Source: Anaerovibrio sp. (lineage in GTDB: Bacteria > Bacillota > Clostridia > Oscillospirales > Oscillospiraceae). Taken from it: 35,223 bases of DNA. Made by a program: the position numbers and the translations under genes. Under the pieces are notes generated by a model. The model did no database searches and had not been told where the DNA came from. It was given only the letters and a program-made list of their open reading frames with translations. Shown here piece by piece: positions 31,338 to 35,223 of this stretch. Position 1 is the first letter of the stretch, and each line of letters opens with the position of its first letter. Location of the stretch: contig CAVJBM010000103.1 in the NCBI GenBank assembly GCA_963647775.1, positions 1 to 35,223 of the forward strand, in the 5' to 3' direction.

Positions 31338-34300
31338 TTGTATCTGAAAGCACTGGAGATCCAGGGGTTCAAGTCCTTCCCGGACAAGACAGTCCTCACC
31401 TTCGGCTCGGACATCACGGCCATCGTGGGGCCCAACGGGTCCGGCAAATCCAATATTTCGGACGCCATCCGCTGGGTCATGGGGGAGCAGTCCTCCCGCA
31501 GCCTCCGGGGCAGCAAGATGGAGGACGTCATCTTTGACGGCACGGCCAAGCGCAAGGGCCTGGGCTTTGCGGAGGTCACCCTGGTGCTGGACAATACCGC
31601 CCACATCTTCCCCGTGGAGGAGACCGAGGTGGCGGTGACCCGCCGCTACTACCGCTCCGGGGAGAGCGAGTACTACATCAACCGCCGCTCCTGCCGGCTG
31701 AAGGACATCAACGAGCTGTTCATGGACACCGGCCTGGGCCGGGAGGGCTACTCCATCATCGGCCAGGGCCGCATTGATGAAATTCTGTCCGTCCGCAGCG
31801 CCGACCGCCGGGAGATCTTCGAGGAGGCGGCGGGCATCTCCCGCTTCCGCCACCGGAAGGAGGAGGCCGAGCGCAAGCTGGAGCGCACCGACGAGAATCT
31901 GGTGCGCATCAACGACAAGATCGACGAGCTGGAGCTCCAGGTGGAGCCCCTGCGGGTCCAGGCGGAAAAGACCAAGAAATTCCTGGTCTACCGGGACGAG
32001 CTCAAGGGCCTGGAGATCTCCGTCTGGCTGGACCAGCTGGAGCAGCTGCGGGCCCGCAGCATCAAGCTGAAGGCCGACCTGGACGCCGCCGTCCGCCAGC
32101 GGGAGGACGCCCAGCGGGACCTGGACGCCCTCTACGCCGCCGCCGAGGAGTACGCCGGGCAGATCCGGGACAAGGACGTGCAGGCGGAGGAGCTGCGGGG
32201 CGAGCAGTCCGGCCTGGACCAGCAGATCCACCAGGCGGAGAGCGGCATCGAGCTGCTGCGCAACGACATGAAGAACAACAGCGAGAACGTCCGCCGCATC
32301 AAAGAGGAGCAGGCCCAGCAGGAGGGCCGCGCGGGCAGTCTGGCCGCCCAAATCGCCGACCGGCGGGAGCGTCTTGCCGCCATCGACGCGGAGATGGAGA
32401 CCTGCCGTCAGCGGGCAGAGGAGCTGGCCCGGGAGAGCGAGGATGCCCTCCGCTCCGCCGGCGGTCTCACCCGGGAGCTGGAGGAGCTGCGGGAGCAGGA
32501 GCGGCTGAGCACCGCCTCCGCCGGCGAGGCGCGGGAGCTGCTGTCCGCCCTGGCCGCCGCGGCCCAGGAGCTGATGGACCGGGAGGAGAAGCTGGGCCGG
32601 GAGCTGCTGGAGCAGGAGGACCGCACGGCGGAGGCCAAGGCCGCCGCCGACCAGGTCCGCCGGGAGCTGGACCGCGTCACCGAGGACCGGGACGCCGCCA
32701 AGAACGTCATCTCCGGCTACCAGATGCGCTGTCAGTCCCGCCAGCGGAAGGCCGACGAAATCGGGGAGCGGCACCGCCGCCTCCAGATGGACGAGAACAA
32801 CCTGAACAGCCGCATCAAGCTGCTGGCCGAGATGGAGAAGGTGTACGAGGGCTACTCCAAGGCGGTGAAGCTGGTGATGACCGAGGCGGAGCGCGGCGGC
32901 CTGCGGGGGGTCCGGGGCCCGGTGGCCGGGCTGCTCCACGTGCCCGACCAGTACGCCGTGGCCATCGAGATCGCCCTGGGCGGCGCCATGCAGAACATCG
33001 TCACCGAGCGGGACGAGGACGGCAAGAACGCCATCCAGTGGCTCAAGCGCCGGGACGGCGGCCGGGCCACCTTCCTGCCCATGAACACCATCCGCCCGGC
33101 GGACTTCAAGGACAAGGCCGTGGAGCGGGAGGACGGCTTCGTGGGCATGGGGGACGCCCTCATCCGCTTCGAGCCGGAGTACGCCGCCGTCTTTTCCAAC
33201 CTGCTGGGCCGGGTGGTCGTCGCCAGGGATATGGACCGGGCCATGGCCATGGCCCGCAAGTTCGGCCACCGCTTCCGCATCGTCACCCTGGACGGCCAGG
33301 TGCTCAACGCCGGCGGCTCCATGACCGGCGGCTCGGTGTCCCGCAGCGCGGGCATCCTGTCCCGGGCCAACGAGCTGGAGCGCCTGAACCAGCAGAAGGC
33401 CGCCCTGGCGGAGGACCTGCGGGCCGCAGCCGCCGACCTGGCCGCCGCCCAGCGGGAGCTCACCGCCGCCAATTACGAGCTTGACACCGCCTCCGCCCAG
33501 CTGCGCGAGGCGGAGGACGCCGTCCTGAAATACACCGAGCGGGCGGACAGCGCCGCCGCCCAGCTGGCGGACCTCACCATCCGGGGGGAGCAGCTGCGGG
33601 CCGACCGGGAGCAGGTCCGCCGCCGCATGGAGGAGAATTCCTCCGCCACCGCCGCGGCCAAGGGCCGCATCGAGGAGTTGGAGGGCTCCGCCGCCGCCCT
33701 GCGGGCGGAGAGCGAGGCCCGGGCCCAGGGCCAGAGCGAGCTGCGGGAGCGGGTGGACGCCCTCAACGCCCAGACCGCCGAGCAGAAGGCCAGGCTGGCC
33801 GGGCTGGAGGGCGAGCGCGCCGCGTCGGAGCAGAATCTGGACGAGCTGGAGCGGCTCAAGGCCGACCTCTCCGGCGACGCCGCCGACCGGGACCGCCGCA
33901 TCGCCGGCCTGGAGGGGGAGAACGAGAGCCTGCTGGCCAGAATTCAGGAGGCGGAGCTGCGGCTCCAGACCCTGCGCACCTCCGGCCAGGGCTATGCCGA
34001 CGCCCTGCGCCGCCTGAACGAGGAAAAGCTGGCCCTGGAGGGCAGGCGCAACCAGGCGGACAAGGGTGCCCGGGAGAAGAACACCGAGCTGCTGGACATG
34101 CAGAAGGAGGTCTCCGCCCTGGAGCAGAAGTCCATGTCCGCCGCCACGGAGGAGAGCCTGCTGCTGGACAAGCTGTGGGAGAACTACGAGCTGTCCCACG
34201 AGGCGGCCCGCGCCCTCCGGGTGGAGCTGGAGTCGGTGCCCAAGGCCCAGCGCCGCATCGGGGAGCTGAAGCGGGCCATCTCGGCCCTGGGCAGCATCAA

Positions 34301-34907
34301 CCCCGACGCCGTGGAGGAATTCCAGCGGGTGAACGAGCGCTACACCTACTTCGCCCAGCAGCGGGACGACGTGTCCAAGGCCAAGGGCGAGCTGGAGGGC
34401 ATCATCGCCCAGATCACCGGCGAGATGACGTCGATCTTCAAGGAGCAGTTCACCCTCATCAGCCAGACCTTCCAGGAGACCTTCCTGGAGCTGTTCCGGG
34501 GGGGCAAGGCCACCCTGGAGCTGGAGGACCCGGACGACATCCTGAACTGCGGCATCGAGATCAAGGTCCAGCCCCCGGGCAAGGCCCTGAAGGTGATCTC
34601 CCTGCTGTCCGGCGGCGAGAAGGCCTTCGTGGCCATCGCCCTGTACTTCGCCATGCTGAAGGTGCGGCCCACGCCCTTCTGCGTTATGGACGAGATCGAG
34701 GCCGCCCTGGACGACGCCAACGTGGTGCGCTTTGCCCAGTACCTGCGGAAGATGAGCGATAAGACCCAGTTCATCGTCATCACCCACCGCCGGGGCACCA
34801 TGGAGGAGGCCGACGTCCTCTACGGCGTCACCATGCAGGAGCAGGGCGTGACCCGGCTGCTGACCATCAACCTGAACGACGTGGAGAAGGAGTTGCACAT
34901 CAAGTGA
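31338..34907 (+). CDS. smc: Chromosome segregation protein SMC
   Basis: GFKSF, GPNGSGKSN Walker A, long coiled coils, hinge (GRATFLP, GGSMTGG), LSGGE signature, MDEIEAALD, ITHR. TTG start at 31338 behind AGAGGT. Confidence 0.97.
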   Translation: MYLKALEIQGFKSFPDKTVLTFGSDITAIVGPNGSGKSNISDAIRWVMGEQSSRSLRGSKMEDVIFDGTAKRKGLGFAEVTLVLDNTAHIFPVEETEVAVTRRYYRSGESEYYINRRSCRLKDINELFMDTGLGREGYSIIGQGRIDEILSVRSADRREIFEEAAGISRFRHRKEEAERKLERTDENLVRINDKIDELELQVEPLRVQAEKTKKFLVYRDELKGLEISVWLDQLEQLRARSIKLKADLDAAVRQREDAQRDLDALYAAAEEYAGQIRDKDVQAEELRGEQSGLDQQIHQAESGIELLRNDMKNNSENVRRIKEEQAQQEGRAGSLAAQIADRRERLAAIDAEMETCRQRAEELARESEDALRSAGGLTRELEELREQERLSTASAGEARELLSALAAAAQELMDREEKLGRELLEQEDRTAEAKAAADQVRRELDRVTEDRDAAKNVISGYQMRCQSRQRKADEIGERHRRLQMDENNLNSRIKLLAEMEKVYEGYSKAVKLVMTEAERGGLRGVRGPVAGLLHVPDQYAVAIEIALGGAMQNIVTERDEDGKNAIQWLKRRDGGRATFLPMNTIRPADFKDKAVEREDGFVGMGDALIRFEPEYAAVFSNLLGRVVVARDMDRAMAMARKFGHRFRIVTLDGQVLNAGGSMTGGSVSRSAGILSRANELERLNQQKAALAEDLRAAAADLAAAQRELTAANYELDTASAQLREAEDAVLKYTERADSAAAQLADLTIRGEQLRADREQVRRRMEENSSATAAAKGRIEELEGSAAALRAESEARAQGQSELRERVDALNAQTAEQKARLAGLEGERAASEQNLDELERLKADLSGDAADRDRRIAGLEGENESLLARIQEAELRLQTLRTSGQGYADALRRLNEEKLALEGRRNQADKGAREKNTELLDMQKEVSALEQKSMSAATEESLLLDKLWENYELSHEAARALRVELESVPKAQRRIGELKRAISALGSINPDAVEEFQRVNERYTYFAQQRDDVSKAKGELEGIIAQITGEMTSIFKEQFTLISQTFQETFLELFRGGKATLELEDPDDILNCGIEIKVQPPGKALKVISLLSGGEKAFVAIALYFAMLKVRPTPFCVMDEIEAALDDANVVRFAQYLRKMSDKTQFIVITHRRGTMEEADVLYGVTMQEQGVTRLLTINLNDVEKELHIK

Positions 34908-35153
34908 CGCCGTAAGGACGTCGGCCTCCTTTTTTGAACTATGCCGACGGACTCTGCGGAAAAGGGCTCCCGACGGAGCCCAGCGAAGCGGGTCCGTTGG
35001 GAAGAGGAGGAGCAAGGGAGCGGGCGCAGCTTTTGCCAAAGGCGGAAGCGGAGCAGAGCGGACTTTGCGACGACGATATGCAGGAGCAGGGCGTGACCCG
35101 GCTGCTGACCATCAACCTGAACGACGTGGAGAAGGAACTGAACATCAAGTGAC
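34833..35153 (+). repeat. 76-bp direct repeat of the smc 3' end (34833-34908 and 35078-35153; 73/76 identical)
   Basis: Both copies read atgcaggagcagggcgtgacccggctgctgaccatcaacctgaacgacgtggagaagga..tg.acatcaagtgac. They differ at GAG/GAA, TTG/CTG and CAC/AAC. Confidence 0.95.
34909..35077. mobile_element. Small non-coding structured insertion element between the duplicated smc ends
   Basis: Flanked by the 76-bp duplication. Contains antisense and sense copies of smc sequence and several hairpins. Encodes no transposase. Confidence 0.55.
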
Positions 35154-35197
35154 ATCGCCCGCCCCACGATCATCAACGATACAAAGAGGAATGAAAC

Positions 35198-35223
35198 ATG
35201 GGCTTTTTTGACAAAGTAAAGAA
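35198..35223 (+). CDS. ftsY: Signal recognition particle receptor FtsY, N-terminus (partial)
   Basis: RBS AGAGGA, then MGFFDKVK; conserved smc-ftsY order. Confidence 0.75.

Follow-up and report, generated by a model that had tools for sequence, protein, structure and literature searches.

An antisense arm behind smc and its association with dispersed structured elements and duplicated gene ends in Oscillospiraceae

The window, which is the whole stretch of 35,223 nucleotides analysed here, contains an intact smc gene followed by an antisense copy of part of its own coding sequence. The copy starts one base upstream of the smc stop codon (TGA, 34905-34907), is followed by a run of six T residues, and lies between smc and ftsY. 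The question that the locus raises is whether such a copy is a working part of the smc–ftsY transcript or the trace of a rearrangement. A preliminary description, made from the letters alone, had proposed that the copy might be a guide sequence or part of a long-loop terminator coupling ftsY transcription to smc translation, and had named a one-off fold-back duplication as the remaining possibility. The identification of the downstream gene is based on the orthologous open reading frame in a relative, which encodes FtsY (TIGR00064, 353.7 bits). The features of the locus are listed in Table 1.

Table 1 Features of the smc–ftsY locus in the window
Feature	Position	Strand	Evidence
smc, intact, 1202 amino acids	31299-34907	+	Open reading frame; TIGR02168 (SMC_prok_B), 1069.5 bits (cutoff 567)
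A, segment of the smc coding strand with which the antisense arm pairs	34804-34831	+	Inverted-repeat search; RNA fold
D1, final 75 nt of smc plus one base; functional copy, loop of the stem	34833-34908	+
Antisense arm, reverse complement of 34804-34831 minus one base	34904-34930	+	Equal score in 0 of 500 shuffles
T6 run straight after the arm	34930-34935	+
Linker, T-rich	34936-34963	+
E, single copy of a dispersed structured repeat	34964-35075	+
E, hairpin P1	34969-35001	+
E, purine box with AGGAGG	35004-35022	+
E, hairpin P3	35029-35049	+
E, invariant tail	35057-35075	+
Two filler bases (AT) between E and D2	35076-35077	+
D2, untranslated second smc 3' end with three mismatches, followed by native intergenic sequence	35078-35153	+
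Native smc–ftsY spacer and first ftsY codons (ATG at 35199)	35154-35223	+	Relative G014/L005

The inverted repeat behind smc and the insertion to which it belongs

The complementarity noticed in the preliminary description is real: 34804-34819 pairs with 34915-34930 at 16 of 16 positions and 34821-34831 with 34904-34914 at 11 of 11, so that the single bulge is the unpaired base 34820. The stem encloses the duplicated segment D1 in a loop of 72 nt (34832-34903) with a stop codon, and the TTTTTT run is present at 34930-34935, as described. Prediction of the RNA fold of 34795-34965 yields the stem with a free energy of -80.1 kcal/mol, compared with -55.3 ± 3.9 kcal/mol for shuffled sequences (z = -6.35; none of the 200 shuffles was equally good). 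The stem is kept when a 376-nt context is folded (z = -6.77), in which the sequence from 34944 is used as an alternative 5' strand. Perfect inverted repeats of at least 16 nt within 200 nt occur at three places in the 35-kb window (five seed hits), and 30 Markov shuffles of the window contain a mean of 0.67 and a maximum of 5 seed hits. The inverted repeat behind smc is far beyond chance. The first five bases of the arm, GTGAC, overlap the end of D1 and constitute a microhomology, and the linker contains a segment (34943-34959) that is similar to A in 14 of 17 positions and also to the 5' strand of the first hairpin of E.

The stem resembles an intrinsic terminator in part. It is G+C-rich, has 27 base pairs ending at 34930, and is directly followed by the T6 run; the loop has 72 nt instead of the 3–8 nt of a short local hairpin, and a consensus scan of 34600-35223 found no terminator-like site. 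No promoter of its own is predicted for ftsY here. A DNA contig from another sample contains the long arm of the window together with five bases at the start of the T-run, with five differences. No T6 run follows the arm at the other sites that were looked at in detail.

The last 75 nt of smc (34833-34907) are repeated at 35078-35152 with 96% identity and three mismatches, and weaker similarity between the two copies reaches as far left as 34818 and 35063. The most similar of 24 genomes of the same genus, G014, has an smc end that is 98% identical to that of the window over 306 nt. In G014, the smc stop codon directly precedes sequence that matches the window from 35154 onwards, with one base different in the start of ftsY. 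Because the smc stop of G014 runs straight into the ftsY leader, the window carries 245 extra bases. As judged from this alignment, the arm lies at the 5' end of an insertion of 245 nt, which is composed of the arm, the T-rich linker, E, the filler, and D2. Among 19 other loci of the same genus, a second smc end is missing in 17, one (L019) is cut by the end of its contig, and one, in genome G005, has its own array of smc-end copies.

The contigs assembled from sequencing runs, with a best word share of 0.24, contain no joint that skips exactly the 245 nt, and the joints seen in them come from relatives. A contig from an RNA library joins the smc end of a relative to a 13-nt arm and E. The E part of metatranscriptome contigs has a depth of 100–540 compared with about 10 for smc, where contig depth is a poor measure to which other copies of E contribute.

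Dispersed elements and the coupling of arm and duplicate

Element E, of which the window contains one copy, has a length of approximately 112 nt and is dispersed among genomes. Positions 34998-35076, extended to about 34960-35076 in the longer matches, match dozens of places in the same genus, for example 22 in genome G015. The 18-nt motif of the tail was found at no fewer than 121 places in public genomes, mostly with titles that name Oscillospiraceae; the genera among the matches listed are Pseudoflavonifractor, Flavonifractor, Lawsonibacter, Intestinimonas, Dysosmobacter, Oscillibacter, Flintibacter, and many other Oscillospiraceae. The aligned matches are clearly E in 71 of 76 rows, and those that are not are L040, L071, L086, L089, and L110. 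In an alignment of 44 copies, compensatory changes affect 18 of the 30 predicted pairs in two hairpins, and a long-range pairing, the AGGAGG purine box, and the tail are invariant. Judging from the frequency of G-U pairs, it is the sense strand that folds. With many copies at unrelated loci and a conserved secondary structure, E shares two properties with dispersed structured repeats of the REP or MITE kind. A coding function of E was rejected, as no frame is preferentially open in 77 copies. Scanning of 34000-35223 against Rfam at E ≤ 1 found no family for E, the sole match having 26.9 bits against a threshold of 120, which is attributed to chance; the same search of five related loci found nothing for E and identified an S10 leader next to one copy. 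Terminal inverted repeats or a short target-site duplication of fixed length are not apparent in the alignments of E copies.

Copies of E occur in either orientation relative to neighbouring genes. The upstream gene is co-oriented with E in 37 cases and opposite in 13, and the downstream gene in 25 and 23, respectively, and there is no strict co-orientation. The sites occupied by E include an S10 leader region, a T-box-like leader, and a parA–parB spacer, and E is also found in tandem arrays. At seven of eight protein-coding sites, inspection by eye places E and D2 in phase. Microhomology with the period-3 coding sequence could explain the phase, and the array at L169 duplicates non-coding sequence.

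The layout of the window, comprising a gene end, an antisense arm that covers the left edge of the duplicated segment, an element, and a second gene end, was found at about 17 sites in many genera. Among the usable copies of E from public genomes, a direct repeat of upstream sequence beside the element tail is present in 12 of 74, or in 11 after the removal of one. The apparent duplicate at L051 proved to be a tandem c-di-GMP-I riboswitch according to Rfam, and L046, L070, L073, and L114 were left out of the count. The duplicate-bearing copies of E are located at the 3' ends of smc (two genera), a tpiA-like gene (two species), eno, rpsI, a flagellin-like gene, and others, and a further one is at the end of rnhA in a genome of the same genus; the gene names are derived from the translated ends. 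At least ten different genes have served as targets.

An arm of 12–27 nt is significant in 10 of 14 scored cases (0 of 500 shuffles), and the duplicate starts one or two positions after the element tail in 12 of the 14. Arms accompany nine of the 12 duplicate-bearing copies of E, as opposed to three of 54 other copies, and those three originate from neighbouring inverted copies of E. The arm thus occurs only together with the duplicate. A significant arm is missing at the duplicate-bearing copies L098, L115, and, by score, L058. Outside the window, the arm extends from about -8 to +12 relative to the left edge of the duplicate and mostly abuts the first hairpin of the element. The arm of the window is atypical, since it covers -27 to +1 without straddling the junction, is separated from E by approximately 27 nt more than most arms are, and continues into the T6 run and an odd linker, unlike the common pattern. 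The arms at L047 and L103 are also displaced.

When the final 75 nt of smc were searched for across the family, 99 of 301 genomes gave a match. Twelve of the 99, from at least ten genera, have a second or third copy of the smc end 107–255 nt downstream. When ten such loci were fetched, one was found to contain an E-type element, seven a different element of about 150 nt, here called F, one an F-like fragment, and one (L166) no element. F is also present in G005. The boundaries of the duplicate at smc vary and are located about 105, 80, and 57 nt before the stop codon. At L157 and L161, long and partly decayed arms start from the stop codon and share the GTGAC overlap of the window, and the arm of L157 carries the synonymous smc variants of its own species. 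One complete genome contains 35 matches to F, including arrays of 3.3 units of 161 nt, 3.4 of 202 nt, 2.3 of 218 nt, and 2.4 of 224 nt with 96–100% identity, in which the unit is formed by the gene end, the arm, and F. An arm of 11–12 nt that spans the junction is positioned directly 5' of F in all five arrays inspected, one of which is non-coding (L169); a sixth F locus, L171, is outside this set. In L168, L164, L158, and L058, an arm is found behind the final gene-end copy as well, and it is therefore either part of the repeated unit or was already present there.

The two copies of a gene end do not evolve separately. In the orthologous insertions L047 and L103, species-specific substitutions are common to D1 and D2. 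The core of the arm is conserved between these loci in 12 of 12 positions, whereas 5 of 14 and 12 of 24 flanking positions are different. Conservation of the core would equally fit selection for pairing. The preliminary description had expected that covariation of the arm with smc would distinguish a functional stem from a one-off duplication, and arms do track the smc sequence of their species, as a comparison of the window with L157 shows, but the untranslated D2 does so as well. Because D2 also follows the sequence of the species, re-templating or gene conversion would account for the covariation of arm and smc as well as selection would, and the concerted conservation of the dead D2 implies that conservation need not mean function.

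Possible origins of the module

The modules have a common geometry, in which the sequence 5' of the element is a reverse-complement copy spanning a point t of the target and the sequence 3' of the element is a direct copy that begins at t+1. The gene upstream of the module stays intact. The element thus connects the bottom strand of the target with the top strand at one and the same point, which is the signature of a strand switch, also called a fold-back or U-turn, and the repeated gene end would result from re-annealing behind the point of departure. We consider it somewhat more probable than not that the arm, the E or F element, and the duplicate together are the footprint of strand-switching copying at the insertion of the element, followed by gene conversion. 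In the proposed sequence of events, the growing sense strand would reach the end of the gene, fold back, and copy the junction of A and D backwards to produce the arm; in the window, this step could have been primed by the 5-nt GTGAC overlap. The strand would then copy an element, re-anneal at t+1, and copy the gene end again to produce D2. The resulting direct repeats D1 and D2 would permit the precise loss of the insertion, as in the empty site of G014, its tandem amplification to 2–3.4 units, and gene conversion, which would keep D2 and the arm matched to the gene. In several targets the tail of the element resembles the sequence just left of t, an assessment made partly by eye. This resemblance and the GTGAC overlap in the window, L157, and L161 are microhomologies of the type expected of switches, and they favour an origin in a single event with several switches. 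The copying may have taken place on DNA at a stalled replication fork or on RNA by a reverse transcriptase.

An origin of the D1 side from the 3' end of a transcript was considered but not adopted, as the loci disagree. In L084, L058, and L170, the D1 side runs through the terminator of the gene, which fits such an origin. L047, where the D1 side ends ahead of the terminator, contradicts it, as do the window and L080, where the D1 side ends with the stop codon.

The strand-switch explanation has weaknesses of its own. The path with three switches is intricate and was constructed to match the observed layout, the capture of an element on each occasion is left without explanation, and L166 has a duplication without any element.

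An alternative to strand switching is that the stem functions as RNA. The arm would then pair with the coding part of the mRNA and might serve as a long-loop terminator, a protector of the 3' end, or an attenuator, and in combination with the T6 run it could couple transcription of ftsY to translation of smc. Several observations are compatible with such a role, namely the very stable predicted stem with its G+C-rich base and immediately following T-run, the retention of the long arm and of most of the T-run in the contig from another sample, the preservation of arm cores between species while the flanks drift, the strand-specific fold of the element, and the high depth of E in metatranscriptome contigs, poor as that measure is. 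Nevertheless, a dedicated function of this kind is unlikely. The T-run is peculiar to the window among the sites detailed, the loop is long and no terminator is called by the scan, and in L084, L058, and L170 the terminator of the gene itself is located upstream of the arm. Furthermore, ftsY, for which no separate promoter is predicted, must still be expressed, and the dead D2 is conserved in the same concerted manner as the arm. The specific proposal of the preliminary description, a terminator that makes ftsY transcription dependent on smc translation, is unsupported on the same grounds, although it is conceivable at this one locus. The stem and T6 run of the window may by accident form a weak terminator, which would not reflect the general nature of the arm.

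A guide function would make different use of the same pairing: the 5' half of the arm would pair with the start of D and the 3' half with the end of A, and the arm would direct a reaction of RNA or DNA such as homing, splicing out of the stretch from D1 to the element, or cleavage. The position of the typical arms, which lie across the junction and mostly abut the element, is that which a guide would have, the duplicate starts from t+1, the element is structured and strand-specific, and the arm is found only with the duplicate. By contrast, the arm of the window does not straddle the junction, a new guide without an evident source would be needed for every site, the element is small and has no match in Rfam, and neither an enzyme nor a ribozyme or RNA family could be associated with it. 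We regard a guide as very unlikely. The spread of the modules could alternatively be attributed to Campbell-type integration of a small circle, containing the gene end, the arm, and the element, by homologous recombination, followed by unequal crossing-over. Such a process would account for the order of parts, (D-arm-element)n-D and then the native downstream sequence, in which the element is never last in most arrays, for arrays of 2.3–3.4 units that are 96–100% identical, and for the precise empty site in a relative. It would explain spread and copy number but not how a circle with an arm arose in the first place. No integrase was identified, and the target genes are many and different, which leaves this process an improbable account of the modules. 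The remaining suggestion of the preliminary description, a fold-back duplication peculiar to this genome, can claim the unusual length of the arm and the idiosyncratic linker of the window. A fold-back or template-switch origin does fit the data, but its being a single occurrence is refuted by the roughly 17 sites in many genera, by the two families of elements, and by the presence of an smc-end duplicate in 12 of 99 genomes with a match, so that it is hardly credible as a one-off event.

Established types of mobile introns and elements were also considered for the window and rejected. Covariance models of Rfam detect no ribozyme core of a group I or group II intron in 34000-35223. A diversity-generating retroelement is contradicted by the differences between D1 and D2, only two of three of which are at A in D2, by other loci with identical copies, and by the gene that follows, which is ftsY and not a reverse transcriptase. 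An integrative element of the att type is contradicted by the 245-nt insert without an open reading frame for a recombinase and by the existence of at least ten target genes instead of one cognate target.

Relation to known systems

Structured intergenic repeats of bacteria include REP/BIME, ERIC, BOX, RUP, and bcr1-type families. E and F resemble repeats of the REP/BIME type in their length of about 100–150 nt, dozens of copies, hairpins with compensatory changes, location in transcribed intergenic regions, and occasional tandem arrangement, and differ from them in that no terminal inverted repeats are visible and no transposase is linked to them. We know of no REP/BIME-type family described with an antisense arm that spans the junction and a direct copy of 25–127 nt of a gene end. 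The module behind smc is also similar to the products of quasipalindrome-associated or microhomology-mediated template switching, because an inverted copy is positioned beside the GTGAC microhomology and the direct duplication fits re-annealing. Classical cases of template switching are sporadic and have no cargo, whereas the E and F modules occur at many loci, have a structured element at the apex, and form arrays.

Integrative elements that replace the 3' end of their target are represented by phage 21 and e14 in icd and by islands in tRNA and tmRNA genes. The E and F modules share with them an intact gene, a 3' end that is present twice around the insert, and tandem accretion. They differ in the size of the insert (110–170 nt), the lack of an integrase, the unrelated targets, the presence of the arm, and the identity of the duplicates within a genome. 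The two halves of the arm pair to the left and right of one junction in the same way as the internal guide of a group I intron (P1/P10). Unlike in a group I intron, there is no ribozyme core, no match in Rfam, and no U-G pair at the junction, and the downstream ‘exon’ is present as a complete copy in the loop. The stem of the window shares its G+C-rich base and the directly following T-run with intrinsic terminators, a likeness limited to the window among the sites detailed, and is distinguished from them by the stop codon in its large loop and by the lack of a call in the scan.

The E and F modules combine two known kinds of sequence, structured dispersed repeats and template-switch rearrangements. 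The listings and abstracts returned by a literature search contain nothing on E or F repeats or on the architecture of an arm with a duplicate, and it is a realistic possibility that the modules are produced by a dedicated mechanism not described so far. More specifically, it is conceivable, if rather doubtful, that Oscillospiraceae possess an undescribed route by which E and F are placed behind genes through strand-switch copying. Such insertions would make their own arm, provide the gene with a fresh 3' end, and be reversible and amplifiable, and the arm would pair the 3' UTR of the transcript with the coding sequence in a programmable stem, for use as a homing guide or in the control of mRNA 3' ends at highly expressed genes. 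If a dedicated mechanism exists, it would represent a new, harmless way for tiny non-coding elements to colonize the 3' ends of essential or highly expressed genes such as smc, eno, tpiA-like genes, rpsI, and flagellin-like genes, and it would generate tandem arrays and long-range mRNA stems in bacteria that are abundant in the gut. The stem and T6 run of the window should not be taken as an evolved regulatory device of smc and ftsY. The modules break genome assemblies, and the pseudo-gene ends that they contain may be miscalled by annotation pipelines.

Purine box and arrays of the E repeat

The dispersed repeat E contains a purine box that is invariant in all of its copies and includes the motif AGGAGG, a perfect Shine-Dalgarno-like sequence. 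No start codon is conserved 3' of this motif. The purine box might function in ribosome binding or mRNA stabilisation. Some E units are organized in head-to-tail arrays, in which short variable linkers take the place of the usual tail, and several of the terminal copies are followed on their 3' side by a palindromic motif of the TTTCACGTGAAA type.

Features of the repeats and of the smc-ftsY spacer
Feature	Location	Size or period
Purine box of E	window 35004-35022	
Head-to-tail arrays of E	L024 (G015:C6:16000-27000), L025-L029	period ~110 nt
Second dispersed element family, F	L157-L164, L008 (G005), L167-L172 (G134)	~150 nt
Contig-end sites in the window's assembly (E-like matches / ftsY start repeat)	G000:C221:1-118, G000:C117:1-53, G000:C224:6360-6414	
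Same-genus smc-ftsY spacers with Cys-rich ORF	L010, L013, L017, L021, L022	~110 aa
E copy apparently within an ORF	L033 (G004:C1:35000-38000)	
smc-end duplicate lacking an element	L166 (G312:C30)	~100 nt

E copies within coding-like or possible coding sequence

At the tpiA-like locus L090, the dead duplicate of the gene end, D2, contains another E copy; approximately seven D2 bases are missing, and there is no arm, the short antisense copy of target sequence. This second E copy is a plain insertion into coding-like sequence. At L033, one E copy apparently lies inside an open reading frame that continues across it with no stop, which makes an in-frame insertion within a gene possible.

The second element family

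F elements have two hairpins, one of them A/T-rich, together with a conserved core of the GGATTCA type and a terminal hairpin of the GGGGCCCC type. One complete genome has 35 F matches. The elements often form arrays of 2-3.4 units, interleaved with copies of the 3' end of a gene.

The smc-ftsY region and assembly breaks

Several same-genus relatives carry a small ORF rich in cysteines, with CxxC motifs, between smc and ftsY; the spacers of the window and of its closest relative, G014, lack it. In the window's own assembly, the remaining E-like matches are positioned at contig ends, and the start of ftsY occurs a second time at the end of another contig. The assembly seems to have been broken by these repeats. 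The smc 3' end is also duplicated in tandem at L166, where a four-base gap and no element separate the copies, the second of which is decayed. This arrangement may be a derivative that remained after element loss.
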